In this document: one piece after another, positions 7,647 to 50,594 of the stretch
Layout: the number at the start of each line of letters is the position of its first letter
Position numbering within the stretch: the stretch's first letter is position 1
Assembly (NCBI GenBank): GCA_965214295.1
Contig: OZ243944.1
Location: 1,653,395-1,717,394, forward strand
DNA length: 64,000 bases
Origin: Chloroflexota bacterium
GTDB lineage: Bacteria; Chloroflexota; UBA11872; UBA12225; JAJDUF01
Direction: 5' to 3'
The notes under the pieces: generated by a model
Databases searched by the model: none
Told to the model about the DNA's origin: nothing
Seen by the model: the letters and a program-made list of their open reading frames with translations, nothing else
Translations under genes and position numbers: made by a program

Positions 7647-7907
7647 GGTGTTTTTCCTTCATCAACGTTTTGAGTTGTCGAAACCGCGGCCGGCACCGCG
7701 CTGCACACTCGCGTCTGCCGGTCCAGAAAGGGTGTGCGGGGGAGGCTATCAAGCGATCTTGCTGCGATTCTACCGTAACGGAGGTGCTGTGGCGGCGTCC
7801 CTGCCAGCAAAGGGTACAATGGCTGCCCGCATAGAACCGTCGGTTCAAGCGTGCTCGATTGGCGGCCAGGCGCGAGGCCAGTGCATCGCTGGCAAGGAAG
7901 GATGCTC

Positions 7908-8855
7908 ATGATGGACTATCGTCGGCTCGGACGCACCGGCCTCACCGTCTCCGCGATTGGCTGCGGCACTTGGGAGCTGGGTGGGCGCGAATGGGGCGAG
8001 ATCGGCACCGAGGACGCGCTGGCCGTCCTGCGCCATGCCTACGATCACGGCGTCACTTTCTTCGATACCGCCGATCAGTACGGCGGTGGTCGCAGCGAGC
8101 GGCTGCTCGGCAAGGCGTTCGGCGGGCAATCCGAGGTCGTGATTGCGACTAAGGTTGGCTACCCGCCGGAGTCGGACGGCTGGTTGGTTCGGCGTGGCTC
8201 CCCACCGCAGCTCAATAGCAGCCGCGCTTATATCACCGCTGCCGTCGAAGGCTCGCTGCGGCGGCTGCGCCGGGAGGCGATTGACCTCTATCAACTGCAC
8301 CAAGCGCCGCCGCCGGAGCAGTGGGGCGAGGCGTTTGCCACGTTGGAGGCCCTGAAGCACGCCGGTAAAATCCGGCATTACGGCGTATCGGTGAATGTCG
8401 AAACCGGCTTGCGCGTGCTACGGGAAACCGACGCGGAGTGTCTGATGCTCGTCTATAACCTGCTCACACCGGAGCCGGAGGCCGAGCTACTGCCGCTGGC
8501 AGAGCTAAACGGCGTGGGTGTCGTTGCCCGTACACCGCTGGCCTCCGGCTTCCTCACCGGTGAGGTCACCGCTGCTACGCAGTTCGGTCCGGGCGACTAT
8601 CGCGGCCTCTGGCCCCGCGAGCGGCGCGAGCACGAGGCGGCGCACGCAGCCGCTTTCTCCTTCCTCGCTACGGACGCTCGCACGCCGTCCCAGGCGGCGC
8701 TGCGCTTTTGCCTGGCGCATCCGGCCGTCTCCACCGTCGTACCGGGGATGATGAGTGTGGACCAGGCGGCTGATGGCATTGCGGCGCTGGCGGCCCCGCC
8801 GCTTTCGGCGGCGGAGCTAGGCCGGGTCCGCGCCATCTGGTCTACCTGGGAGTGA
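7908..8855 (+). CDS. aldo/keto reductase
   Basis: MMDYRRLGRTGLTVSAIGCGTWELGG, IDLYQLHQ; RBS AAGGAAGG upstream. Confidence 0.8.
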   Translation: MMDYRRLGRTGLTVSAIGCGTWELGGREWGEIGTEDALAVLRHAYDHGVTFFDTADQYGGGRSERLLGKAFGGQSEVVIATKVGYPPESDGWLVRRGSPPQLNSSRAYITAAVEGSLRRLRREAIDLYQLHQAPPPEQWGEAFATLEALKHAGKIRHYGVSVNVETGLRVLRETDAECLMLVYNLLTPEPEAELLPLAELNGVGVVARTPLASGFLTGEVTAATQFGPGDYRGLWPRERREHEAAHAAAFSFLATDARTPSQAALRFCLAHPAVSTVVPGMMSVDQAADGIAALAAPPLSAAELGRVRAIWSTWE

Positions 8856-8869
8856 GCGCCAGCGCGACG

Positions 8870-9922
8870 CTAGACGAGGTGTGGAACGACGCCGAGACCC
8901 GGACGGTCCGGCGGGGTGAGCCGGCCCTGCTCGTGGGTAGCGCCGCTGAACGGGTCGGCCGCGAGGAGCAAGTGACCGTCGAGGTCGGCATAGTCCAGCC
9001 ACGGCAGCAGGTGGGTGGCGGCGGTGATCGCCAAAGAGCTTTCCACCATGCAGCCGACCATCACCTGTAGCCCGTGCGCTCGCGCGACCTCGACGAGGCG
9101 TCGGGCGGGGCGCAGACCGCCGCACTTCATCAGCTTGATGTTGATGCCGTCGCAGGCGTGAGCAATGCGGGGTATGTCTGCCGCCACAATACAGCTCTCG
9201 TCGGCGATCAGCGGCAGCGGCAGTTGGGCATACACGTGGGCCATCCCCACAAGGTCGCTCGCCGCCACCGGTTGCTCCAGTAGCTCGACGCCGGCCGCAA
9301 CGAGGTCAGGGCCGATCTGTAGGGCCTCTTTCGGCGACCAAGCGGCGTTGGCATCCACCATGAGCCGCGCGCTCGTCGCCTCCCGCACGGCGGCCAGAAT
9401 AGCCCGATCCTGGGCCAGATCACCGCTGCCGAGCTTGATCTTGAGCAGCGGAAACCCCGCCGCGGCAGCGGCCTTGGCTCGCTGCGCGACAATAGCCGGT
9501 TCGGCCATGCCGATAGTGAAAGAGGTCAGCGGGCCGGCGTTACGGTCCAGTCCCCACCAGCGCCACAGGGGCAACCCGGTAAGCTGCCCGGCCAGATCGT
9601 GCAGCGCCATGTCTATGGCCGCGCGAGCGGCGGCGTTGTGCCCTAGCGCCCGCGCCAGCCGCGCCAAGATCGCCTCCAGGGCGAGCGGGTCATCGCCGAG
9701 GAGCGGCGCGTAGGCATCCAGCGCAGCCCGGACAGTGGCGACGTTCTCGCCGTAATAGGCGTTCGGCGCCGCCTCGCCCAGCCCGACCAGCCGGCGCCCG
9801 TCGGGCGCTTCCCACGTCAAGCGCACCAGGACGTTCTCGGCGACGGCCCTCGTACCACGCGCAATCGTGAACGGCACGGCCAGGGGCAGCGCGAGCGGCT
9901 CGTGCTCCAGCTCGATACGCAT
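8870..9922 (-). CDS. dipeptide epimerase (L-Ala-D/L-Glu epimerase-like, enolase superfamily)
   Basis: AIDMALHDLAGQ, KIKLG, MVDANAAW, ESCIV motifs of MR/MLE-type dipeptide epimerases; translationally coupled to upstream epimerase gene (3-bp gap, RBS GGAGGAGG). Confidence 0.75.
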   Translation of the reverse strand: MRIELEHEPLALPLAVPFTIARGTRAVAENVLVRLTWEAPDGRRLVGLGEAAPNAYYGENVATVRAALDAYAPLLGDDPLALEAILARLARALGHNAAARAAIDMALHDLAGQLTGLPLWRWWGLDRNAGPLTSFTIGMAEPAIVAQRAKAAAAAGFPLLKIKLGSGDLAQDRAILAAVREATSARLMVDANAAWSPKEALQIGPDLVAAGVELLEQPVAASDLVGMAHVYAQLPLPLIADESCIVAADIPRIAHACDGINIKLMKCGGLRPARRLVEVARAHGLQVMVGCMVESSLAITAATHLLPWLDYADLDGHLLLAADPFSGATHEQGRLTPPDRPGLGVVPHLV

Positions 9923-36304: not shown

Positions 36305-36406
36305 CCCCTTGGTAGCCGGAGACGACACAGGCTATCATCTGGGGTATTGGGAAGAGGTTCGCCTATCTGGACGCACTCCGCCTCGCGCGGTGGAGAGGCA
36401 AGCGAG

Positions 36407-37588
36407 ATGACTGAGGCATTTGTCACGCCGGAAATCATCACGTGGGCACGGGGCCGCTTCAAGTGGGACCACGAGATGCTCGCAAAACGAGTGGGCGTCA
36501 ACGTGCGTACCGTCATTGCCTGGGAAACTGGCAAGAAGCGCCCCACTCAGCGGCAAGCGACCAAGCTCGCCGCCAAACTTCACGTTCCCTTGGGGTATCT
36601 GTGGCTCAACGCGCCACCAGCACTTGAGGTACCGATACCTGATCTTCGCACTGTTAGCGGTGTCGGGCCCCAGCCACCCAGCGCAAACTTTATAGATGTT
36701 CTGTACGATGCACGTAGAAAACAGCAATGGTATCGAGAATACTTGCAGAGCGAGGGGGCACGACCACTCCCATTTGTGGGCAGATTTCCTCTGAAATATG
36801 ATCCTAGATTCGGTGATGTTGCTGATGACATGAGAGCTACTATAGGCGTTGATAATGCACGACAGAAATCCAAGAAACACCTTCAATTTCTCGGTTTTCT
36901 TGCGGAAAATGCAGATAAAATAGGGATACTTGTATTGCGGAGTGACAAGGTGGGGAATAACACACGCCGAAAAATAAATGTTGATGAATTTCGTGGCTTT
37001 GCGTTCGTTGATGACTTAGCACCACTGGTTTTCATCAACAGTGCCGATACTCCTGCTGCCAGGATATTCACACTGGCGCATGAGCTTGCTCACGTGTGGA
37101 TCGGAGAAAGCGGAATATCTAACCCAACCGCAATCGGCATGGTTTTGCAGAAGGATAATCGCATCAATCGCTTCTGTAATCAGGTTGCGGCCGAGCTTCT
37201 TATACCAGCTGCGAGTTTTGTGGAAAAATGGCAACAAGGTGGAAATGTCGAAGAAAACATAACGGCGATGAGCGAATTCTATCACGTGAGCCGCACTGCG
37301 GTCCTGATTCGAGCCTATGAGCATGAGCTTCTGCCTGATGAAATCTATCGTCTTAAGCTTGAGCGACTGCAGCAATGGGAAATTCAGGAGCCTCAAGGTG
37401 GTGGCGGGAGTTTCTGGAACAACTTCCTTGCCAGCAATAGCCACACCTTGGTTCACGCGGTGCTTACCTCTGCCGCGGAGGGCCGCATTTCCGAGCGTGA
37501 TGCGGCAACCTTGCTAAGTCTCACCAATCGTAAGACGCTGAGATCGGCACAAGAGAAATTCATTCGTAGGCAGGTAGTCGGTGCCTGA
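36407..37588 (+). CDS. XRE-type HTH fused to ImmA/IrrE-family (DUF955) zinc metallopeptidase
   Basis: HTH (LAKRVGVNVRTVIAWETGKK), HEXXH (AHELAHVW); RBS GGAGAGG; ~50% GC. Confidence 0.75.
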   Translation: MTEAFVTPEIITWARGRFKWDHEMLAKRVGVNVRTVIAWETGKKRPTQRQATKLAAKLHVPLGYLWLNAPPALEVPIPDLRTVSGVGPQPPSANFIDVLYDARRKQQWYREYLQSEGARPLPFVGRFPLKYDPRFGDVADDMRATIGVDNARQKSKKHLQFLGFLAENADKIGILVLRSDKVGNNTRRKINVDEFRGFAFVDDLAPLVFINSADTPAARIFTLAHELAHVWIGESGISNPTAIGMVLQKDNRINRFCNQVAAELLIPAASFVEKWQQGGNVEENITAMSEFYHVSRTAVLIRAYEHELLPDEIYRLKLERLQQWEIQEPQGGGGSFWNNFLASNSHTLVHAVLTSAAEGRISERDAATLLSLTNRKTLRSAQEKFIRRQVVGA

Positions 37589-38063
37589 CTACTGGCTTGA
37601 CTCGGATACTTTGATTCGGCCGTATCGGGAGCTTACCTTTGATTGGCTGCCGAGCCTCTGGACGATCCTGCGGGAGAAGGGTGTGGAGGGAATCATTGCG
37701 AGTAGTTTGTATGTCTATGAAGAACTCAAGGATGGTGATGACGCTCTAGCGAAATGGGCTGAGGAGTGCCGGGACTTTGGGTTGTGGGTGCCGGCCGACG
37801 AGAGTGTCCAGCATGCCTACTCCACAATTGCAAACTATGTAGTGCAGCATCGGACTTATTCTCCGGAGCATGTGGCTATGTTCCTGGGCAAGGCTGATGC
37901 ATGGATCATCGCGCATGCTCTGGCCGGTGGTGGCAGAGTGGTCACGTTCGAGGTGTCTCAGCCGCTATCAGCGAGGCCCAAAATCCCGGATGTCGCTGGC
38001 AATTTCGGGGTGGACTGCTTAACGCTACATGAAATGCTCAGGGAAATGGAGGTAAGAATCTAA
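37581..38063 (+). CDS. DUF4411 PIN-like domain protein (putative nuclease/toxin partner of ImmA/IrrE-HTH gene)
   Basis: GTG start overlapping upstream stop by 8 bp (GTGCCTGA); family assignment from memory of conserved ImmA-DUF4411 pairing. Confidence 0.6.
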   Translation: MPDYWLDSDTLIRPYRELTFDWLPSLWTILREKGVEGIIASSLYVYEELKDGDDALAKWAEECRDFGLWVPADESVQHAYSTIANYVVQHRTYSPEHVAMFLGKADAWIIAHALAGGGRVVTFEVSQPLSARPKIPDVAGNFGVDCLTLHEMLREMEVRI

Positions 38064-38118
38064 GGTGCTTCCGTGTTGCGGCGTATCCATGCGCCGTCTT
38101 CCTCGGCCGCTGGCACGG

Positions 38119-40500: not shown

Positions 40501-40666
40501 TCTCCTCGCTCCCGACCGGTCGTGATGCATAGTATGGTCGCCGCCGGCGCGGCCGCGCGCTCGCCTCCGACCGGCCCTTATCGTACCGCGCGCCGCCGAT
40601 AGCCTCCGACCACGTCGCCTGCAAGTGGTAGAATGCCCACCGGACCACCGACGGAGGATAGACGGC

Positions 40667-41494
40667 ATGCCAGGACTGACGGCGGCGCAGTTGCAGCAGT
40701 ATGGGGAGGACGGTTTCCTGACGGTGGAAGGGGTCCTGACCCCGGAGGAGGTCGAGACGCTGCGTCAAGCGTGCAGTGAGGTAGAGGAGCTGGCACAGGG
40801 CCTCACGGCTCGGACTCCGGCCATCCAGCCGCGTATCCTCCCCTCCGGCCGCCGCGTGGTGGACATTGTCAAAGGAGCCGTGTTTCAGCATCCGCAGTTC
40901 CTCGCAGCCTGCACGCACCCCGGCGTACTCGACATCATCGAATCGCTGGTCGGCCCGGATATTCAGCATCACCACAGTAAGCTGAACTGGAAGCCCCCGC
41001 TGCCCCCGGAGCAGGCTGCCCAGGGGTGGAAGATCGGGTGGCACCAGGATTACGCCTTCTTCCCGCACACCAACTATGATCTGCCGGCGTGCGCCATCTA
41101 TCTCGATGACACCAACCTGGAGAATGGCTGTATGCAGGTCATTCCCGGCAGCCATCGCGGCGGACCGCGCAATCATATGCAGGACGGCGCCTTCAGCGGC
41201 GTGTGTCAGGAGCCGGAAGCCTACGCGGACGAGTCGCGGTGGCGGACGGTGGAGGTTCCGGCCGGCGGCATCTCGCTCCACCATTGCCTGATGCTCCACA
41301 GCTCCGGCCCCAACCACTCGGAGCGCGCCAGACGAACATTCGTTATTCAGTATCGGGCGGCCGACAACGTGCAGGTCGCCGGCCGCACCAGTCATCTGGG
41401 CTGGGGCTTTCAGGTCCGCGGACAGAACCATGCGCTGATCCGCTTCGAGAACGGAGTCACCTGCCCGCTCCCGGAGGGGCTGACGTCGCACTAG
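40667..41494 (+). CDS. phytanoyl-CoA dioxygenase (PhyH) family Fe(II)/2-oxoglutarate oxygenase
   Basis: WHQDYAFF (HxD) ... HHCLMLHSSGPN ... RR; RBS GGAGG. Confidence 0.75.
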   Translation: MPGLTAAQLQQYGEDGFLTVEGVLTPEEVETLRQACSEVEELAQGLTARTPAIQPRILPSGRRVVDIVKGAVFQHPQFLAACTHPGVLDIIESLVGPDIQHHHSKLNWKPPLPPEQAAQGWKIGWHQDYAFFPHTNYDLPACAIYLDDTNLENGCMQVIPGSHRGGPRNHMQDGAFSGVCQEPEAYADESRWRTVEVPAGGISLHHCLMLHSSGPNHSERARRTFVIQYRAADNVQVAGRTSHLGWGFQVRGQNHALIRFENGVTCPLPEGLTSH

Positions 41495-41504
41495 GAGCGA
41501 CCCC

Positions 41505-42305
41505 ATGAACACTGCGGAGCAGCAAGCGCACTTCCGCACCTTCGGCTTCGTGGTCCAGCGTCAGGCGTTCACGCCCGACGAGATGCGGGCAATTACGCAC
41601 GAGTTCGACGCTCTGATGACCGAGCTGCGCGAGGGCCAGCCCTTTATGGGGGAGAGCAGTGAAAATCGCGCTCCGTTCGTCGAGCTACGCCCGGCACTGT
41701 CCCGGCTGGCGGTGGACGACCGCATCCATGGCACCGTCGAGAAGTTGCTCGGCCCGGACTTCCTCTGGGCCAGCTCCGAGGGCAACATCACCGTCGGCGA
41801 CCATCTCTGGCATCCCGATAGGCCGGGCGACGAGGAAGAGATTTCGTACCTCCGCCTCAAGACGATGATTTACCTGGACGAAACGACCCGAGATGCCGGT
41901 GCCATCCGCCTGATCCCCGGCTCGCATCGTCTGCCGCTGCACGAGGAGATCGAGCGTGAGCAGCGCCACCAGCACGGGCCAACGTTGGCGCCGTTCGGTG
42001 TGCCCGGCGCCGAGGTGCCCTGCTTCGCCTACGAGTCCCGACCCGGCGACGTGCTCTTCTTCAACCAAAGCCTCTGGCATGGGGTCTTCCACGGGTGGGT
42101 CGGGCGCCGCTATATCGCGCTGAAGTACGCCGCCATGCCGCAAACGGACAAGCAGATTGGCTCGCTCGACTACTATTCCCGCGGCACTATCTTCCAGCCG
42201 GTCGATTCGTTCGCGCAGAGCGACAATCCCCGCATTCGGCGCATGGTGGACCCGCTACCGGCGCTAGGACGCAAGCAGGTCCCGCCCTTTGTCCCCTTCC
42301 GCTGA
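41505..42305 (+). CDS. PhyH-family Fe(II)/2OG oxygenase
   Basis: LWHPD (HxD), IPGSHR, LWHGVF. Confidence 0.75.
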   Translation: MNTAEQQAHFRTFGFVVQRQAFTPDEMRAITHEFDALMTELREGQPFMGESSENRAPFVELRPALSRLAVDDRIHGTVEKLLGPDFLWASSEGNITVGDHLWHPDRPGDEEEISYLRLKTMIYLDETTRDAGAIRLIPGSHRLPLHEEIEREQRHQHGPTLAPFGVPGAEVPCFAYESRPGDVLFFNQSLWHGVFHGWVGRRYIALKYAAMPQTDKQIGSLDYYSRGTIFQPVDSFAQSDNPRIRRMVDPLPALGRKQVPPFVPFR

Positions 42306-43943
42306 ACAGGCGAGATGGGTCTCTATCCATTCCGTAACGGTGTCTCGCCAGGCGACCGGGGCAAAAAGCCTCAAGCTAAGGTACGACCGTCGCTCATCCA
42401 TTCCCAGTGCCGCCACTGCTGCATTGTGACCGATAACCAGGGGTACTAGGGTCGTATACCGAACGTAATGTACAGACATGTTTGGAAACTCTATGGCCGA
42501 CGTCAGCTGCTCCAAGAAGGGCCGAGAAAATAGATTCCGGTTCTCTTTCCTGGACACCACAAAATAGCTTGCGAGTGGATTCATTGCTAGTTGTAGACAC
42601 TCCCAAGAAACATCCCCTGTTGCTCTAGTTAGGCAATATGTGAAAGCCGGTCCGCTGGTATCCCCAAGTCCGATCTCAATCGCGTCAGGCCGTTTGGCAT
42701 TCACCACTTCCCAGTTTCTATGACCGTCTATTCTTCGCTGTCCCCGCCGCGACCTCGACTGCCAGTATGTTCCGAAGATGTAGCAAGCCCCAAAAACCTC
42801 TTCTAGCAGTGACCACCCCACACGACGCATCTGGTACAACAGCCGGTCAAACCGATACTCTCGCTCATCGTCCTTCATGAGTCCCAAAAGCCTGATCTCG
42901 AAGCCACTGATCTGATCCAACACCTGAGTTGGCACTTGCGCCCGATCCGCCTCTTCCGGGAACCAACTGAGTTCAGCAATGTCCCGGGGAGTCAGAACCG
43001 GGTAGGCTACAGCCCGTATCGGTAGGTCGGGGGCATGCCGCCAGAATACTTGCTTGTCATGCTGCGCTCGCCAGAGATGGCGGCTCTGTGTACTCCCCCC
43101 ATCCAGTTCATGGCGAACGGGCTTGGGGATCATGCCCCGGCCATCCCAAGTAGCGATATGCCACGTTGTACTCGCCACCGGGAGCACGGGACCATCTGGG
43201 TCGGGGCCAATGAGATGCTGTTCAATCCAGGCCGCGATCACAGGACGCAGTTCAGCCGGCATAAGAATCTGCAGACCACCGCTACTAGCTGAGACGAGTG
43301 CCATGCCATGGCGCACCACCAGAGCAAGCAGGGCCGGGTAGTTGACCTTGACTTTCCTGCGGCGTGTCTCCACATGCAGAGTATTAATGACCTTGGAGAG
43401 AAATGCTTGAGAGATGATTTGGGTATCCGGCGTGGTAGTTGAGATGAAAGGGGACATAATGGCATAGTGATCTTCAACAGAGTCCAGGTATCCTCCGATA
43501 TTCACTCTCCGCAAACCAACTAGAAAGCTGTAGCGTGGCTCCGTATCAACCTCACGCTCTACGACCCCCTTCTCTCTGAGCTTGCTTTCCTCCCAAAATA
43601 GTCCTTTATATGATCGGATTCTATTCTTCATTTCGATATTACTTATACGGAGAAGATGATTTGATTGAAACACATCACTGAGAATACTCTGTGTAATCAT
43701 CCTCTGCAGTTTGGAAACACGATCAAGGAGATGACGATAACGATCATCCCGGCCCTCGAAGTCAATAGCAATACCGCTAACCGGTGGGGGTGTCCCAGTC
43801 GGCAATTGTGCTGTATTGGCACTTTCCGGATGCCAATGCAGGTCGGGTATGTCCCCTAGCCCTACTTCTGGATACTCCGTCACATGGAACGTGATATCGT
43901 ACATAGCTCCCGGCGTCCCTTCCGTGGTGAGAACAGTAAGCAA
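42264..43943 (-). CDS. hypothetical protein (559 aa), no recognisable domain; low-GC islet
   Basis: long ORF with protein-like composition, ~50% GC; start may be M14 (MYDITFHV); overlaps 3' end of PhyH gene convergently. Confidence 0.5.
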   Translation of the reverse strand: MLTVLTTEGTPGAMYDITFHVTEYPEVGLGDIPDLHWHPESANTAQLPTGTPPPVSGIAIDFEGRDDRYRHLLDRVSKLQRMITQSILSDVFQSNHLLRISNIEMKNRIRSYKGLFWEESKLREKGVVEREVDTEPRYSFLVGLRRVNIGGYLDSVEDHYAIMSPFISTTTPDTQIISQAFLSKVINTLHVETRRRKVKVNYPALLALVVRHGMALVSASSGGLQILMPAELRPVIAAWIEQHLIGPDPDGPVLPVASTTWHIATWDGRGMIPKPVRHELDGGSTQSRHLWRAQHDKQVFWRHAPDLPIRAVAYPVLTPRDIAELSWFPEEADRAQVPTQVLDQISGFEIRLLGLMKDDEREYRFDRLLYQMRRVGWSLLEEVFGACYIFGTYWQSRSRRGQRRIDGHRNWEVVNAKRPDAIEIGLGDTSGPAFTYCLTRATGDVSWECLQLAMNPLASYFVVSRKENRNLFSRPFLEQLTSAIEFPNMSVHYVRYTTLVPLVIGHNAAVAALGMDERRSYLSLRLFAPVAWRDTVTEWIETHLACSAEGDKGRDLLAS

Positions 43944-44160
43944 GGACCAGGTCGGAGGCTATACTTAGCGTCAGCCCTCAACATAGCGGCGGCACAGCAT
44001 CGGTCCGGCGGAATCGGCAGCGATGGCATCCGTCCGTCCCATGTTATGTGGCCCACCTGATGGGTATCATACAGTACCCGGACATCCCTGCCGCCCGCAC
44101 TGCTACTTCACGAGGGCTTGCGGCGCCCACAACGGTAATCAGAAGTCAGGAGGCCACACG

Positions 44161-45351
44161 ATGAGCAGCCGGAGCGAGCCGCCAGCGACCGCCGGAGCCG
44201 CCGCCAGCGGGCAGCGGGTTGATCTCGGCATCACGCGGCTGACGCAATCGGACGCCGGACACGCCAACGGCGCCGCCATCGTGCGCGCGCAAAACGGGTC
44301 GCGCCCCGAACGCATCGCCACCGATTTCTCCGCGGCCCGGTCGCGCTATCGCGTGAGCGTGGAGGAGTACGTGCGGTTCCTCGTGGACGGGTTCTTGATC
44401 GTGCGCGGCCTGGTCGGTCCGGAGGAGGTGCAGGAGTTACTCACTCACACCGAGGACCTCCTGTATGGCCGCGTCGAGGCGCCGGGCTTGGCGCCACCCC
44501 CGCCAGGCGCCAGCGTAGCCGAGATCGAGCGCCGGTACCTCCGCATCCATATGCTGCACCAACATCTGGAAATACACGAGCGCTTTCTGCTCCATCCGCG
44601 TATTCTCGACGTGCTCGAAGCGCTCATCGGCCCGGACGTGATGGCGATGCAGACGATGCTCTTTTTCAAGCCGCCCGGTGGCGCCGGCCAAGGCTATCAT
44701 CAGGACAGCTACTACATCCCCACCTACCCCGATACGCTCTGCGGCGCGTGGCTGGCGTTGGAGCGGGCGGATGAGGAAAACGGCTGCGTGTGGTTCACGG
44801 GCGGCACGCAGCACGAGCCGATCTATCCCAGTGCGGACCGGCTCACCCAGAATCACGCCAACCTGGCGCTGACACCCGTGGAGCACGTGTCGCATACGGA
44901 CACGGCAGTCAACACGTTGAGCCGGATTGCTGCGCGGTATCCTGGGCGGGAAGTGCCGGCCGTCGCCGAGCCGGGTGACGTGGTGTTCTTTGCCGGGCAC
45001 ATTCTCCACCGCTCGCACACCAATCGGTCCCCGGATCGTTTTCGCCGGGCGTTCGTTAGCCACTACGCCAACGCCCGCTCGTTCACGATGTGGGGTGGCC
45101 CGAGCCGGCAGCGGCAGACGAATGATCGGCATATTCTGGCCCGCGGGTGGACGCACTTGCCGTTCGGCCTCCCCCGGTTCGAGACACCCTGCGCGGCCAA
45201 CGGGCCGCCGCCCGCTGCCGCCCAACGGGGTGACGAGCCAATGCCCAGCGCCCTCATGGCGGACGGCGCTGAGATGCAATCGGCGGCACAAAACCCGCAG
45301 CGGAACGACCCGGCGCTGATGCGGCAGCACGATACTGCCGGCGGGCGCTAG
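44161..45351 (+). CDS. PhyH-family Fe(II)/2OG oxygenase with N- and C-terminal extensions
   Basis: YHQDSYY (HxD), FAGHILHRS; RBS AGGAGG 8 nt upstream. Confidence 0.7.
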   Translation: MSSRSEPPATAGAAASGQRVDLGITRLTQSDAGHANGAAIVRAQNGSRPERIATDFSAARSRYRVSVEEYVRFLVDGFLIVRGLVGPEEVQELLTHTEDLLYGRVEAPGLAPPPPGASVAEIERRYLRIHMLHQHLEIHERFLLHPRILDVLEALIGPDVMAMQTMLFFKPPGGAGQGYHQDSYYIPTYPDTLCGAWLALERADEENGCVWFTGGTQHEPIYPSADRLTQNHANLALTPVEHVSHTDTAVNTLSRIAARYPGREVPAVAEPGDVVFFAGHILHRSHTNRSPDRFRRAFVSHYANARSFTMWGGPSRQRQTNDRHILARGWTHLPFGLPRFETPCAANGPPPAAAQRGDEPMPSALMADGAEMQSAAQNPQRNDPALMRQHDTAGGR

Positions 45352-45384
45352 AGACACACGGGCGTCACAGACGGGACCGCTGCG

Positions 45385-46785
45385 ATGTTATTGACGATTA
45401 CCACAACCTACCAACCTGCCACCGACCTGGGCTTTCTTCTGGCCAAGAATCCGGCCCGGTGTCAATCGTTCTCCTTGTCCTTCGGTCAGGCCCATGTCTT
45501 TTATCCGGTAGCGCACGACCGGGTCTGCACGGCGGCACTGCTCGTTGACCTCGATCCGATCCGTCTCGTGCGGCGGCGACGAAGCCGTCAGAGCCAGGAC
45601 CGCACGCTCGGCCAGTACGTGAACGACCGGCCGTATGTGGCCTCATCTTTTCTGAGCGTGGCGTTGGCCCGCGTGTACAAGTCGGCATTGGGCGGCCAGA
45701 GTAAAGAGCGACCGGCACTTGCGGCTACGGCTATTCCGCTCGCGGTGCAGATCACTGCGGTCCAATGTCGCGATGGTGAGCGCATGCTGCGGGCGCTCTT
45801 CGAGCCGCTCGGCTACAACGTCAGCGCCGAGCGCCAGCCGCTCGATGTAGCCTTTCCGCAGTGGGGAGAGAGCACGTATTGGTCACTCGCTCTCGATGCC
45901 ACCCACCGCCTGCATGACCTCCTCACACACCTGTATGTCTTGCTGCCGGTACTGGACGACGACAAGCATTACTGGGTTGGGAGGGACGAGCTGGAGAAGC
46001 TGCTGGCAAAAGGAGCGGGCTGGCTCTCGACTCACCCGGAACGTGACTTGATCGTTGACCGCTACTTGCGGTACCGGCGCCTGCTCACCCGCGAGGCCCT
46101 CGCCAGACTGGTGGTCGACGACGACATCAATCCCGATGCTACCGAGGAAGCACAGGCCCGCGAAGAGGCGGTGTTGGAGGACAGAATCAGCCTCAGTGAG
46201 CAGCGCATGATGGCCGTGCTGGCTGTGCTCAGGGGAGCCGGCGCTACACGGGTGATCGACCTGGGCTGTGGGGAGGGGAAGTTTCTCCAGGTGCTACTCA
46301 AGAATACGGACTATGAGCAAATCACCGGTATGGATGTGTCCTCCCGGGCCCTAGCGTTAGCAGCGAGACGTTTGCGGCTCGACCGGTTACCGGCGAGACA
46401 ACGCGCGCGCATCGAGCTTTTTCAGGGAGCGCTCACCTACCGGGATCAACGACTCACCGGTTACGATGCCGCCTGTGCGCTGGAGGTTATCGAGCACATC
46501 GAACCATCGCGGCTGGGCGCTTTCGAGCGGGTGCTCTTCGAGTTTACACGGCCGTCAACCGTAGTGATTACCACGCCGAACACAGAGTACAACGTGCGAT
46601 TCGAGGACCTTGCCGCCGGTCGGTTCCGCCACCGCGATCATCGCTTCGAGTGGACCCGCGCGGAGTTCTCACGCTGGGCGCAGCGGGTGGCAGATCGCTC
46701 CGGCTATGCGTTTCGGTTGCTGCCTATCGGTCCAGTTGACCCGGCCGTAGGTCCTCCGACCCAGATGGCGGTATTCTCACGATGA
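45385..46785 (+). CDS. hen1: bacterial Hen1 RNA 3'-terminal 2'-O-methyltransferase
   Basis: N-terminal Pnkp-interacting region and C-terminal SAM MTase (VIDLGCGEGKFL); overlaps pnkp start by 4 bp (ATGA). Confidence 0.8.
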   Translation: MLLTITTTYQPATDLGFLLAKNPARCQSFSLSFGQAHVFYPVAHDRVCTAALLVDLDPIRLVRRRRSRQSQDRTLGQYVNDRPYVASSFLSVALARVYKSALGGQSKERPALAATAIPLAVQITAVQCRDGERMLRALFEPLGYNVSAERQPLDVAFPQWGESTYWSLALDATHRLHDLLTHLYVLLPVLDDDKHYWVGRDELEKLLAKGAGWLSTHPERDLIVDRYLRYRRLLTREALARLVVDDDINPDATEEAQAREEAVLEDRISLSEQRMMAVLAVLRGAGATRVIDLGCGEGKFLQVLLKNTDYEQITGMDVSSRALALAARRLRLDRLPARQRARIELFQGALTYRDQRLTGYDAACALEVIEHIEPSRLGAFERVLFEFTRPSTVVITTPNTEYNVRFEDLAAGRFRHRDHRFEWTRAEFSRWAQRVADRSGYAFRLLPIGPVDPAVGPPTQMAVFSR

Positions 46786-49337
46786 ATATCACTGTCCCGG
46801 CACTGTCGTTGGTGGTCTTGATCGGCCCTTCGGGCAGCGGCAAGTCTACGTTTGCCAGCAAGCATTTCAAGCCCACGGAAGTGCTGTCATCCGACTATTG
46901 CCGCGGCCTCGTGTCCGATGACGAAAACGATCAAGCTGCGACGAAAGATGCCTTCGACGTACTCCACTTCATCGCTCGCAAACGCCTCGCGGCTGGCCGG
47001 CTCACCGTGGTAGATGCTACCAACGTTCAGGCGGAGGCACGCAAGCCGCTGGTGGCGCTGGCACGAGAAGCCCACGTGCTTCCTGTGGCCCTCGTCTTCA
47101 ACCTGCCGGCCAAGCTGTGCCAGGAGCGCAACCGCGACCGGCCCAACCGCGACTTCGGTCCCCACGTGGTTCGGCAGCACAGTCAGCAGCTGAGACGCTC
47201 GCTCCGCGGCCTGCGGCGGGAGGGTTTTCGACACACCGCTATCCTGAGCACGCCGGATATGGTCGCCGCCGCCCGTATCGTGCGGCAGCCTTTGTGGGTC
47301 GACCGGCGGCAGGAGCATGGTCCGTTCGACATCATTGGCGATGTCCACGGCTGCTTCGATGAGCTTGTCGCGTTGCTGGAGCAGCTGGGCTATGACATCG
47401 GCGGCCCGACTGGTCGGCCCACGGTGCGCCACCCGGACGGTAGGCGTGCGGTGTTTGTTGGCGATCTCGTGGATCGAGGCCCTAACTCGCCTGGGGTGCT
47501 CCGGTTGGTCATGGCCATGGTGGCCGACGCGGCAGCGCTGTGTGTGCCGGGCAATCACGACATCAAGCTCATGCGAAAACTCAAGGGGCGCGATGTTCGG
47601 ATCACGCATGGTCTCGCGGAAACGCTGACGCAGCTGGCCGCAGAGCCGGATGACTTCCGACGGAGCGTGATGGAGTTTCTCGACGGGCTGGTGAGCCATT
47701 ACGTGCTCGACGATGGGCGGTTGGTCGTTGCTCATGCTGGCCTGAAGGAGGAGCTGCAAGGGCGCGCCTCGGGCCAGGTACGGGAGTTTGCGCTCTATGG
47801 CGAAACCACTGGCGAGACCGATGAGTTCGGATTGCCGGTTCGTCACAACTGGGCTGACGACTACCGAGGATCGGCCACTGTCGTCTACGGACACACACCG
47901 GTACCAGCCGCAGAGTGGCGCAACCGGACTGTCTGTATTGACACCGGTTGCGTGTTTGGTGGGAAGCTGACGGCTTTACGCTATCCGGAAAAGGAGCTGG
48001 TGCATGTCCAGGCGCGCCGCACCTACTATGACCCGGTGCGTCCTCTACTACCACCAAGCCAAGAGGCGCCGGCTGTATCGCGCCGTCCCCACGATGACAT
48101 ACTGGATATCAACGATGTCTTGGGTAAGCGTGTCATTACCACACGCATTCACCGCAACATCACTATTCGCGAGGAGAATGCTTTGGCGGCTCTCGAGGTC
48201 ATGAGCCGATTTGCGGTGGATCCGCGGTGGCTTATCTATCTACCACCGACTATGGCTCCTCCGGATACCTGCAAAGATGGCGAGTACCTTGAGCATCCAC
48301 GCGACGCCTTCGCTTACTTCCGAGGGCAGGGAGTGGCTCAGGTTATCTGCGAGGAAAAGCACATGGGCTCACGGGCTATCGTCGTTCTCTGCCGCGATCA
48401 GGAGGCGGCCCAGCGCCGATTCCAGGCGGACAATGGCCGGCTCGGTCTCGTCTATACGCGCACGGGACGCCCCTTCTTTTCCGATACCAAGATGGAGGGC
48501 ACGCTGCTCGCGCGTATGTCTGCCGCCTTGGCGCAGGTGGACTTCTGGGATCGCTTTGAGACGGACTGGCTCTGCCTCGATGCCGAGCTGCTGCCGTGGT
48601 CGGCGAAGGCTCAGGGGTTGCTACAGGATCAGTACGCAGCTACGGCGGCCGCAGCCAGCACTACGCTCGATGCCGCCGTCTCCTTGCTGAAGAAGGCCGC
48701 GGGCCGCGAAGAAGAGCGCGCGGCGTTGCTCACTCGCTACCGGAAGCGCCAGGAAATGGCGAGCCGGTTTCGCGCGGCCTATCGTCGCTACTGCTGGCCG
48801 GTCAGGAGTGTGGCCGACCTGAAGCTGGCGCCCTTTCACCTGCTGGCGACGGAAGGGCGGACATACACGGACAAGGACCACACCTGGCACATGGAGATGG
48901 TCGCGGCCCTCTGCCAGGCTGATGGAGCGATCTTCGCTGCTACTCCCTACAAAACTGTCGACCTGACCGACCCTGACAGCGAGACAAGAGGGATCAGCTG
49001 GTGGAAAGAGCTGACTGCCGCTGGCGGCGAGGGGATCGTTGTGAAGCCGCTCCGGTGGATCGTGAGAGGGAGTCGAGGCCTCGTTCAGCCGGCCATGAAG
49101 TGCCGGGGACGCGAGTACTTGCGATTGATCTATGGCCCGGAGTATACGGCTCCTGAGCACCTGGAGCGGCTCCGGTCCCGCAAGGTCTCCGTGAAGCGCT
49201 CGTTAGCCCTGCGAGAGTTTGCGCTGGGTGTCGAGGCGCTCCATCGGTTTACGGAGGAAGAGCCGCTGTATCGGGTGCATGAATGCATCTTCGGCGTGCT
49301 GGCCCTGGAGAGCGAGCCGGTCGACCCTAGGCTCTAG
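46782..49337 (+). CDS. pnkp: polynucleotide kinase-phosphatase (kinase / metallophosphoesterase / ligase-like domains)
   Basis: P-loop GPSGSGKST; calcineurin-type GDVHGC..GDLVDRGP..GNHD; C-terminal adenylyltransferase-like EEKHMGSR. Confidence 0.85.
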   Translation: MNITVPALSLVVLIGPSGSGKSTFASKHFKPTEVLSSDYCRGLVSDDENDQAATKDAFDVLHFIARKRLAAGRLTVVDATNVQAEARKPLVALAREAHVLPVALVFNLPAKLCQERNRDRPNRDFGPHVVRQHSQQLRRSLRGLRREGFRHTAILSTPDMVAAARIVRQPLWVDRRQEHGPFDIIGDVHGCFDELVALLEQLGYDIGGPTGRPTVRHPDGRRAVFVGDLVDRGPNSPGVLRLVMAMVADAAALCVPGNHDIKLMRKLKGRDVRITHGLAETLTQLAAEPDDFRRSVMEFLDGLVSHYVLDDGRLVVAHAGLKEELQGRASGQVREFALYGETTGETDEFGLPVRHNWADDYRGSATVVYGHTPVPAAEWRNRTVCIDTGCVFGGKLTALRYPEKELVHVQARRTYYDPVRPLLPPSQEAPAVSRRPHDDILDINDVLGKRVITTRIHRNITIREENALAALEVMSRFAVDPRWLIYLPPTMAPPDTCKDGEYLEHPRDAFAYFRGQGVAQVICEEKHMGSRAIVVLCRDQEAAQRRFQADNGRLGLVYTRTGRPFFSDTKMEGTLLARMSAALAQVDFWDRFETDWLCLDAELLPWSAKAQGLLQDQYAATAAAASTTLDAAVSLLKKAAGREEERAALLTRYRKRQEMASRFRAAYRRYCWPVRSVADLKLAPFHLLATEGRTYTDKDHTWHMEMVAALCQADGAIFAATPYKTVDLTDPDSETRGISWWKELTAAGGEGIVVKPLRWIVRGSRGLVQPAMKCRGREYLRLIYGPEYTAPEHLERLRSRKVSVKRSLALREFALGVEALHRFTEEEPLYRVHECIFGVLALESEPVDPRL

Positions 49338-49454
49338 GTTGTGCTGACGTTTGAGCTGGAAGGCAGTGCCACCAATCCCTTTCCGTCATCCCGGTGGAAG
49401 CCGGAATCCATGCCCCCCTGCGAAGCGGGGAACATAGGGGGCCGGGGGGTAGTC

Positions 49455-50594
49455 TTAACCACGGACCGTGAAGCGGTCTTCCAGCTCGTTCTCGATGGCT
49501 ACCAGCCCGGTGTAAGCAAGCTCGGCGTTGGACGCCATCGCGGCTCCGAACCAGCCCTGCCGGCGCATCGCCAGACCCTTCTCGACCGCGCCACGACGGA
49601 CCGATTCCCAGAGGCTGTCGGCAAAGAAGTCCACGATCTCCCCGGTGAAGTTTCCGGCAGCGTCTACCGAAACTCCAAGCGCCGACACAATCGGTTGGCA
49701 GTACACAAAGCGCACTTCACTGTTGATGGGGACGGGCGTAATCGGCATCACGTGGCTGCCGCGTGCGTCGCCGGTCACGTAGGGACAGATCGCCCACGGC
49801 AGGAGCACTTCCTCCGGTGCCGGAAAGATGCCCTGGGTGCGTATAATCGCCACCGGGTCATCCTTCCCGACGTAGGTCCCGGCGATGTTGTGCAGCCGAC
49901 TCGTACTGGCCGCGAGTAGCTGCTGGTCGGGATGGGCACGCGACCAAGCCGACTGAATGGCGAAACGCGCTTCATCGCGCAAGAGGGCCGCCAGCCGATA
50001 GTAGTCCTCGGGTGCATGGAGGGTAATCTCCCGATCTCCCTCCGTATAGTCCATATCCATCAGGCAAAAGCTGAACCCTTGGCTCATCTCCGGCTTGAGG
50101 AGCAGGCCCCCGCAGTACATCGGGTCGGCAAGGGGTAAGAAGAACGGCAAGTTGAAAGCGCCGGGCGCGCACTTATCCGCATAGAAGAAGAGCACCGTTT
50201 CGGCCGGCCGGACCTTGTTGTCCTTGACCGGATTATGCTCGAACTCCAGCTCGGCGACGGCCGGGCCGGCGCCCCGGATGTTGCCGGAGGGAGCATCCAC
50301 CAACAGGTCTTGCCCGGCGCCATAGTCACCGCGCTCCTGAGCAGCCGCCGTCCCGTTCTGGAAAGCGTCCCAGGCCAGCTGGTGTAGCTCCGTATTATCG
50401 GGGCCGACGGTATGGCTGCACGTGATCGCGATATCGTCGCCGGTGTGGGTGATCATCATGTCAATAAGCAGGCCGCGCTCTTGGGCGGCGGCAAATGTCT
50501 CCCGCACCGCCGCCAGCACCGCCTGCGAGGGGCGGGTGTGGCCCCCCGGCGACCCGATGTCCGCCTTGAAGATCGAGAGCGTCAATTTCATCGT
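49455..50594 (-). CDS. fbp: fructose-1,6-bisphosphate aldolase/phosphatase (class V FBPase)
   Basis: MKLTLSIFKADIGS N-terminus characteristic of bifunctional FBP aldolase/phosphatase; RBS GGGGGGA. Confidence 0.85.
   Translation of the reverse strand, partial: TMKLTLSIFKADIGSPGGHTRPSQAVLAAVRETFAAAQERGLLIDMMITHTGDDIAITCSHTVGPDNTELHQLAWDAFQNGTAAAQERGDYGAGQDLLVDAPSGNIRGAGPAVAELEFEHNPVKDNKVRPAETVLFFYADKCAPGAFNLPFFLPLADPMYCGGLLLKPEMSQGFSFCLMDMDYTEGDREITLHAPEDYYRLAALLRDEARFAIQSAWSRAHPDQQLLAASTSRLHNIAGTYVGKDDPVAIIRTQGIFPAPEEVLLPWAICPYVTGDARGSHVMPITPVPINSEVRFVYCQPIVSALGVSVDAAGNFTGEIVDFFADSLWESVRRGAVEKGLAMRRQGWFGAAMASNAELAYTGLVAIENELEDRFTVRG

Follow-up and report, generated by a model that had tools for sequence, protein, structure and literature searches.

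The window analyzed here is a stretch of 64,000 nucleotides from a Chloroflexota bacterium (contig OZ243944.1). Positions 44161 to 49337 of this window hold three open reading frames (ORFs), all on the plus strand in the window's ORF list, which encode a PhyH-family oxygenase (here called PhyH-C), Hen1, and Pnkp. Judged from their sequences, hen1 and pnkp form a canonical and apparently intact bacterial Hen1-Pnkp RNA-repair pair in the standard arrangement. The original prediction, made from the nucleotide sequence and its translations, had recognized this pair and had proposed that the PhyH gene could add a further component to it. The features of the locus are as follows.

44161..45351, plus strand: PhyH-C, 396 amino acids (aa), Pfam PhyH (PF05721)
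45352..45384, plus strand: spacer between PhyH-C and hen1, 33 bp
45385..46785, plus strand: hen1, 466 aa, Hen1_L and S-adenosylmethionine (SAM) methyltransferase domains (Pfam)
46782..49337, plus strand: pnkp, 851 aa, AAA_33, Metallophos, and PNKP_ligase domains (Pfam)

The hen1 stop codon and the pnkp start codon overlap in an ATGA at 46782-46785. Both this overlap and the 33-bp gap between PhyH-C and hen1 were read directly in the sequence and agree with the earlier description.

Hen1 scores 693 bits against the NCBIfam equivalog TIGR04074 (cut-off, 340) over residues 2-466 of 466, and Pnkp scores 1443 bits against TIGR04075 (cut-off, 750) over residues 1-851 of 851. Since both proteins match full-length and above the equivalog cut-offs, the assignment of Hen1 and a three-domain Pnkp to the RNA-repair system holds. 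The Hen1_L domain occupies residues 1-242 of Hen1 (Pfam, E 3.5e-110), with a SAM methyltransferase domain at the C terminus; the protein matches the solved N-terminal domain of Clostridium thermocellum Hen1 (4dqz, E 9e-81) and a Hen1 methyltransferase-domain chain (3jwh, E 6.5e-78). The motifs DLGCGEG at 292-298 (SAM), EVIEH at 367-371, and HRDHRFEW at 416-423 are present, and the metal-binding Glu and His residues are kept. Hen1 is thus predicted to combine an N-terminal Pnkp-binding Hen1_L domain with a C-terminal, Mn-dependent SAM methyltransferase.

Pnkp presents the Pfam domains AAA_33 (10-141), Metallophos (181-375), and PNKP_ligase (469-846, E 9.9e-181) in this order, and its kinase, phosphatase, and ligase domains match the solved C. 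thermocellum chains 4gp6, 4j6o, 3ty5, and 4drf. The domain matches of Hen1 and Pnkp to solved structures span E 1e-68 to 1e-168. In the kinase domain, the P-loop GPSGSGKS (15-22) is followed by D38 and R41 (within 36-41); the phosphatase domain carries GDVHG (186-190), GDLVDRG (227-233), and GNHD (257-260), and the ligase domain carries KHMGSR (526-531), with the lysine predicted to be adenylylated. In alignment, these motifs correspond to those of the solved C. thermocellum domains.

The characterized system heals 2',3'-cyclic-phosphate and 5'-OH ends, 2'-O-methylates the 3'-terminal nucleoside, seals the break, and shields the junction from recleavage (PMC3675462). Because homology is full-length and the motifs are intact, this mechanism should apply to the cassette in the window. 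By homology with the C. thermocellum and Anabaena systems, the Pnkp phosphatase would strip the 2',3'-cyclic phosphate from RNA cut by a ribotoxin, and the Pnkp kinase would phosphorylate the 5'-OH. Hen1, its N-terminal domain docked on the Pnkp ligase domain, would then methylate the 2'-OH of the 3'-terminal nucleoside, after which the ligase would seal the break and leave a 2'-O-methyl mark that blocks recleavage at the junction.

The arrangement of the two genes was compared across a survey in which the Hen1 alignment was scanned against one genome per species. This retrieved 80 loci from phyla that include Acidobacteriota, Planctomycetota, Cyanobacteria, Myxococcota, Gemmatimonadota, Verrucomicrobiota, and Chloroflexota. 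In all 74 loci that carry both genes, among them Nostocales relatives of the characterized Anabaena system, hen1 precedes pnkp and has the same orientation. The order hen1 before pnkp is the norm, and the earlier suggestion that it is unusual, with the opposite order given for the characterized Clostridium system, does not stand. Text searches of the literature returned no explicit statement of the C. thermocellum hen1/pnkp order, so the order was judged from the direct count of loci; published accounts place hen1 and pnkp always within one operon or cassette (PMC4411300; PMC3675462). The gap between the two genes is at most 100 bp in 47 of the 74 loci, and in 11 loci the matches abut without a gap in tblastn coordinates, which is consistent with the overlapping junction in the window. 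A pnkp match is absent from 6 of the 80 loci, 4 of which end soon after hen1. The other two, in Abditibacteriaceae (L019) and Chamaesiphon (L085), have 10 kb downstream of hen1 with no detectable pnkp and may represent split Pnkp1-Rnl-Hen1-type systems or orphan hen1 genes.

Extra genes of 0.5 to 2.8 kb stand between hen1 and pnkp in 24 of the 74 loci, and none in the window. RlaP nucleotidyltransferases (PF10127) occupy this interval in 8 loci, often two together, of about 310 and 255 aa, a Thg1-like gene with a 149-aa partner in 4, and HEAT-repeat proteins in several. The interval behaves as a variable slot whose contents are necessarily coexpressed with the repair genes. Complete defense candidates were also seen nested there, namely, PDC-M38 A+B (L033), a Shedu SduA nuclease (L074), and an Mrr-type nuclease fused to tetratricopeptide repeats (L070).

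The gene upstream of hen1 belongs to the PhyH family, as had been proposed, but the length of 442 aa given for its product is that of the maximal ORF (44023-45351). Translation almost certainly begins at the ATG at 44161, the coordinate from which the original prediction itself counted the locus, with a product of 396 aa, because an AGGAGG Shine-Dalgarno sequence lies 7 nucleotides upstream of this codon, the nearest homologues are 396 aa long and cover 100% of the product starting there, and DNA homology with the sister genomes begins only at 44125, which places codons 1 to 34 of the 442-aa ORF inside a strain-specific insertion. PhyH-C matches PF05721 at 125 bits (cut-off, 22; E 5.8e-36), and no other Pfam family matches it at E 0.01 or below. 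The iron triad H180-x-D182...H283 and the 2-oxoglutarate (2OG)-binding R295 align to a phytanoyl-CoA dioxygenase chain (2a1x), and these four residues are invariant or nearly so in the family alignment. PhyH-C is probably an Fe(II)/2OG hydroxylase rather than a halogenase, since the HxD...H triad is kept. Its nearest solved relatives are 2a1x, PHYHD1, and small-molecule hydroxylases or halogenases such as SyrB2, EvdO1, and CytC3; AlkB chains are not among its solved-structure matches, and Pfam returned no AlkB-type 2OG-FeII_Oxy_2 domain. PhyH-C also scores well short of all NCBIfam equivalog cut-offs (for example, 24 bits versus 336 for ectoine hydroxylase), and the PADLOC defense search gave no match for it.

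The long terminal extensions that the original prediction singled out are present, but they are shared across the PhyH-C family and are not confined to the copies linked to hen1. They comprise a variable, low-complexity N terminus and a conserved C-terminal region of about 90 aa (ILARGWTHLPFG.PRFGTPCAAN...RNDP). An AlphaFold2 model of PhyH-C, built from a 21-sequence alignment, had a mean pLDDT (predicted local distance difference test score) of 55.5, with residues 1-48 and 307-396 below 50, and could not support a fold search. The family has many members and unusually high conservation, with 60-90% identity among matches whose source names are Chloroflexota, Chloroflexi, or Chloroflexia, and its orthologues form a continuous series of 53-91% identity, Chloroflexota by source names. 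Its recurrent neighbors are a divergent AraC-type regulator (17 loci), a Gfo/Idh/MocA oxidoreductase (16 loci), a peptide-type ATP-binding cassette (ABC) ATPase, and an amidohydrolase. This context of regulator, oxidoreductase, transporter, and amidohydrolase points to a role in small-molecule catabolism, and PhyH-C most likely hydroxylates a small metabolite and not RNA.

A PhyH-C relative is absent from all 79 surveyed Hen1 loci other than that of a sister genome (L006), a Chloroflexota metagenome-assembled genome (MAG) chromosome with about 90% identity to the window and the only survey locus with PhyH-C upstream of hen1. Conversely, neither hen1 nor pnkp was found within 6 kb of PhyH-C relatives (53-76% identity) in any of 80 metagenomic loci, 52 of which include 1.5 kb or more of sequence downstream. 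Two relatives looked up individually, at 72% and 62% identity, stand either beside a DUF2203 gene with a luciferase-like monooxygenase gene or alone, without hen1 or pnkp. The PhyH-C/hen1/pnkp trio occurs only in the window and in L001, L006, L169, and L170, in which PhyH-C is 86-91% identical. Adjacency of PhyH-C to hen1 and pnkp therefore does not recur in independent lineages and is confined to five loci of about 90% identity. A literature search found no paper that combines Pnkp, Hen1, and a dioxygenase. With no co-occurrence of the trio outside one narrow lineage, the proposal that the PhyH enzyme is an added RNA-repair component is not sustained.

All five lineage loci contain PhyH-A, PhyH-B, PhyH-C, hen1, pnkp, and a convergent fructose-1,6-bisphosphatase (FBPase) gene, which follows pnkp in the window as in the sister loci. 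PhyH-A and PhyH-B are two further PhyH genes upstream of PhyH-C that the original prediction had not mentioned, and in the window the array is flanked by a Gfo/Idh/MocA gene and an MR_MLE (enolase-superfamily) gene. PhyH-A, PhyH-B, and PhyH-C are contiguous in L001, L006, and L169, with 157 bp between PhyH-B and PhyH-C; in the window, an insertion splits them. The upstream features are as follows.

36317-38098: low-GC, strain-variable segment with HTH_3-Peptidase_M78 and DUF4411 genes
40625-41494, plus strand: PhyH-A, Pfam PhyH, E 1.3e-36
41505-42305, plus strand: PhyH-B, Pfam PhyH, E 1.5e-14
42306..44124, minus strand: strain-variable 1.8-kb insertion that splits the PhyH array and replaces the spacer of the sister genomes
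42264-43904/43943, minus strand: orphan antisense gene of about 546 aa carried by the insertion

The five loci share about 88-92% DNA identity and run colinear for 20 kb, and their shared gene order thus reflects descent and does not count as independent evidence. Hen1 homologues at 89-93% identity (about 25 clusters) are followed directly by matches at 69% or less, whose source names are Thermodesulfobacteriota, Dongiaceae, Competibacteraceae, and Kofleriaceae, and other Chloroflexota Hen1 proteins are just 59-63% identical to that of the window. PhyH-C, unlike Hen1, grades smoothly within Chloroflexota. Because of this gap in Hen1 identity, with nearest matches from other phyla, against the smooth grading of PhyH-C, lateral transfer is the most likely origin of the cassette. 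In an ancestor of one Chloroflexota lineage, the cassette would have landed between the PhyH array and the convergent FBPase gene, and the adjacency of PhyH-C and hen1 would then be historical, the consequence of an arrival beside the array.

In two of the sister loci (L001, 11225-15178; L169, 9352-14551), hen1 and pnkp, together with FBPase in L169, are fragmented by frameshifts. Pseudogenization of hen1 and pnkp was considered and rejected, as FBPase is also split in L169 and the contig names are of long-read style; indel errors are the more likely explanation. The ORF at 49341-49919 downstream of pnkp was treated as spurious, having no family match and lying antisense to the FBPase gene. 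No Rfam element was found across 40-52 kb at E 0.1 or better, and no tRNA or tmRNA was found in the window.

The spacer between PhyH-C and hen1 was inspected for signs of separate transcription. A consensus scan of 43.8-49.8 kb found no terminator-like site in the 33 bp, but its promoter and terminator counts were at or below shuffle expectation, and the scan is therefore uninformative. Folding of the spacer gave no significant hairpin (z 0.65). Since the genes share a strand and the gap is short and free of a predicted terminator or hairpin, cotranscription of PhyH-C with hen1 is plausible, and read-through from PhyH-C may yield a shared transcript. Read-through alone would not imply a shared function. 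Conservation of the 33-bp spacer was seen in four sister loci, and L169 has in its place 124 bp that consist of three GC-rich hairpin repeats (-75.9 kcal/mol). The close spacing of PhyH-C and hen1 is therefore not kept even within the lineage. GC-rich palindromic repeats (CCCCCCGTTGCGACGGGGGG-like) lie in intergenic spacers of L169 at 7790-8000 and 9228-9351, as a tandem triplet between PhyH-C and hen1, and also between PhyH-B and PhyH-C. The repeat units look like repetitive extragenic palindromic (REP) or miniature-element hairpins.

One Hen1 locus outside the lineage, in a Chloroflexia MAG (L009), holds a different PhyH-family gene between hen1 and pnkp. It is part of a two-gene module.

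L009, 11349-13159: Cys-rich 285-aa protein and compact 254-aa PhyH-family oxygenase

The 285-aa protein has no family match. The oxygenase matches PhyH-C over 46 residues only in BLASTP, with 35% identity and an E value of about 0.001. The module recurs in L087 at 79-82% identity without hen1 or pnkp, and further homologues of the oxygenase at 85% and 58% identity sit in unrelated contexts. A PhyH subfamily dedicated to repair was considered for this gene and rejected, given that homologues at 85%, 79%, and 58% identity occur in unrelated contexts. The module represents a one-time insertion into an interval in which foreign genes are often found.

The 1.8-kb insertion in the window takes the place of the 121-bp spacer found between PhyH-B and PhyH-C in L001 and L006 and has a GC content of 0.55, against 0.65 in its surroundings. 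An orphan gene 78% identical to that of the window stands at the same site in L170 and is absent from L001, L006, and L169. The orphan protein has no Pfam, NCBIfam, or PADLOC match and none to nuclease, toxin, or defense families; among 1.84 billion proteins, it has a single full-length representative. It is an internal tandem duplication of a unit of about 240 aa (E 3e-15), which also occurs as stand-alone proteins of about 230-270 aa without a family assignment. No convincing terminal repeats or target-site duplication were found around the insertion. The segment at 36317-38098 is likewise variable, being present in the window, L001, and L170 and not in L006. Its HTH_3-Peptidase_M78 protein is of the ImmA/IrrE type, and the pairing with DUF4411 is typical of toxin-antitoxin or mobile-element modules.

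The locus is, with high probability, a canonical Hen1-Pnkp cassette in its standard arrangement beside the gene of an unrelated metabolic hydroxylase. PhyH-C is the last member of a three-gene PhyH hydroxylase array and, on this reading, goes with the metabolic Gfo/Idh/MocA and enolase-superfamily genes. Several observations weigh against this reading. The trio is co-oriented, with a 33-bp gap that lacks a predicted terminator or significant hairpin, and no sigma-70-like promoter was predicted for hen1, in a scan that is uninformative for this phylum (1 site versus 1.4 expected by chance). PhyH-C has also stayed beside hen1 in the window and in L170, where the insertion cut off PhyH-A and PhyH-B, and the Chloroflexia locus nests its own, unrelated PhyH-family gene between hen1 and pnkp. 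Lateral transfer, moreover, is inferred from identity ranking and source names, and a genome with the empty site was not found. A rival reading, in line with the original prediction, is that PhyH-C was recruited in this lineage as a third cotranscribed repair component, which might oxidatively remove or add a modification on damaged tRNA or rRNA or hydroxylate Hen1 or Pnkp. In its favor, besides the shared strand and the short gap free of a terminator or hairpin, none of the five lineage loci departs from this arrangement, even where the insertion sets PhyH-C apart from PhyH-A and PhyH-B, the iron/2OG site of PhyH-C is intact, and the slot that harbors the other PhyH-family gene elsewhere holds the RlaP and Thg1-like accessories. 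Such recruitment is nevertheless very unlikely. The five loci are so similar in DNA that their synteny is simple descent; outside the lineage, hen1 and pnkp were near PhyH-C in none of the 80 metagenomic loci and in neither of the two individual look-ups, and no other Hen1 locus carries a PhyH-C relative. PhyH-C matches Pfam PhyH only, with no AlkB-type 2OG-FeII_Oxy_2 domain, and no PhyH-family enzyme is known to act on nucleic acid. In L169, strong hairpins fill the longer spacer, so tight coupling is not kept there. The oxygenase of the Chloroflexia locus shares only the short BLASTP match with PhyH-C, and its module is found without the cassette. The fuller version of this idea, in which PhyH-C is cotranscribed with hen1-pnkp and co-opted to act on damaged or modified RNA or on the repair proteins and the Chloroflexia gene is a second sign of the link, has a fainter chance still.

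The cassette might instead be part of a small variable or defense-type island and work with the orphan gene, for instance, by providing immunity to a ribotoxin encoded there. Situated 217-257 bp upstream of PhyH-C and on the other strand, the orphan gene is low in GC and strain-variable, a second variable pair (HTH_3-Peptidase_M78 and DUF4411) is found 6 kb away, and other genomes nest defense genes (PDC-M38 A+B and Shedu SduA) in their hen1-pnkp cassettes. L001, L006, and L169, however, have the cassette without the orphan gene, so that the two are not interdependent, and the orphan protein matches no nuclease, toxin, or defense family. Of the explanations weighed here, this one is the least credible and is highly improbable.

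A canonical cassette beside a metabolic gene extends the record of Hen1-Pnkp, documented before in many phyla, by one uncultured Chloroflexota lineage with textbook architecture. For the PhyH neighbor, adjacency gives no ground for annotating or pursuing it as an RNA-repair factor. If recruitment did occur, PhyH-C would be the first oxygenase of the PhyH type with a link to RNA repair, and the Hen1-Pnkp pathway would gain an oxidative step; the present evidence does not favor that link.

Compared with known systems, PhyH-C shares the broad superfamily and the HxD...H iron site with the AlkB-family Fe(II)/2OG dioxygenases but has no AlkB-type match. It is closer to hydroxylases of the phytanoyl-CoA and ectoine type (PF05721), with which it shares the domain, the iron triad, the 2OG-binding Arg, and a catabolic-type context, and from which its family differs by the conserved C-terminal extension of about 90 aa and by scores below the equivalog cut-offs. 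Genuine accessories of the cassette are exemplified by the RlaP and Thg1-like genes, recurrent companions in RNA-ligase operons, which are found repeatedly in different phyla, placed between hen1 and pnkp (PMC12776372); PhyH-C does not recur in this way and is located outside the pair. The three-component Pnkp1-Rnl-Hen1 complex (PMC4411300) has the chemistry of healing, 2'-O-methylation, and sealing in common with the cassette, but its ligase is a separate protein and its hen1 is distant from the other two genes; in the window, the ligase is fused within Pnkp and the genes overlap. The closest counterpart is the Pnkp-Hen1 system of C. thermocellum and Anabaena variabilis, a Pnkp2-Hen12 heterotetramer made of the same proteins with the same domain orders and lengths (466 and 851 aa). 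The genes of that system are likewise adjacent and co-oriented (PMC3675462, PMC4411300); the architecture is identical, and the host here is an uncultured Chloroflexota lineage.

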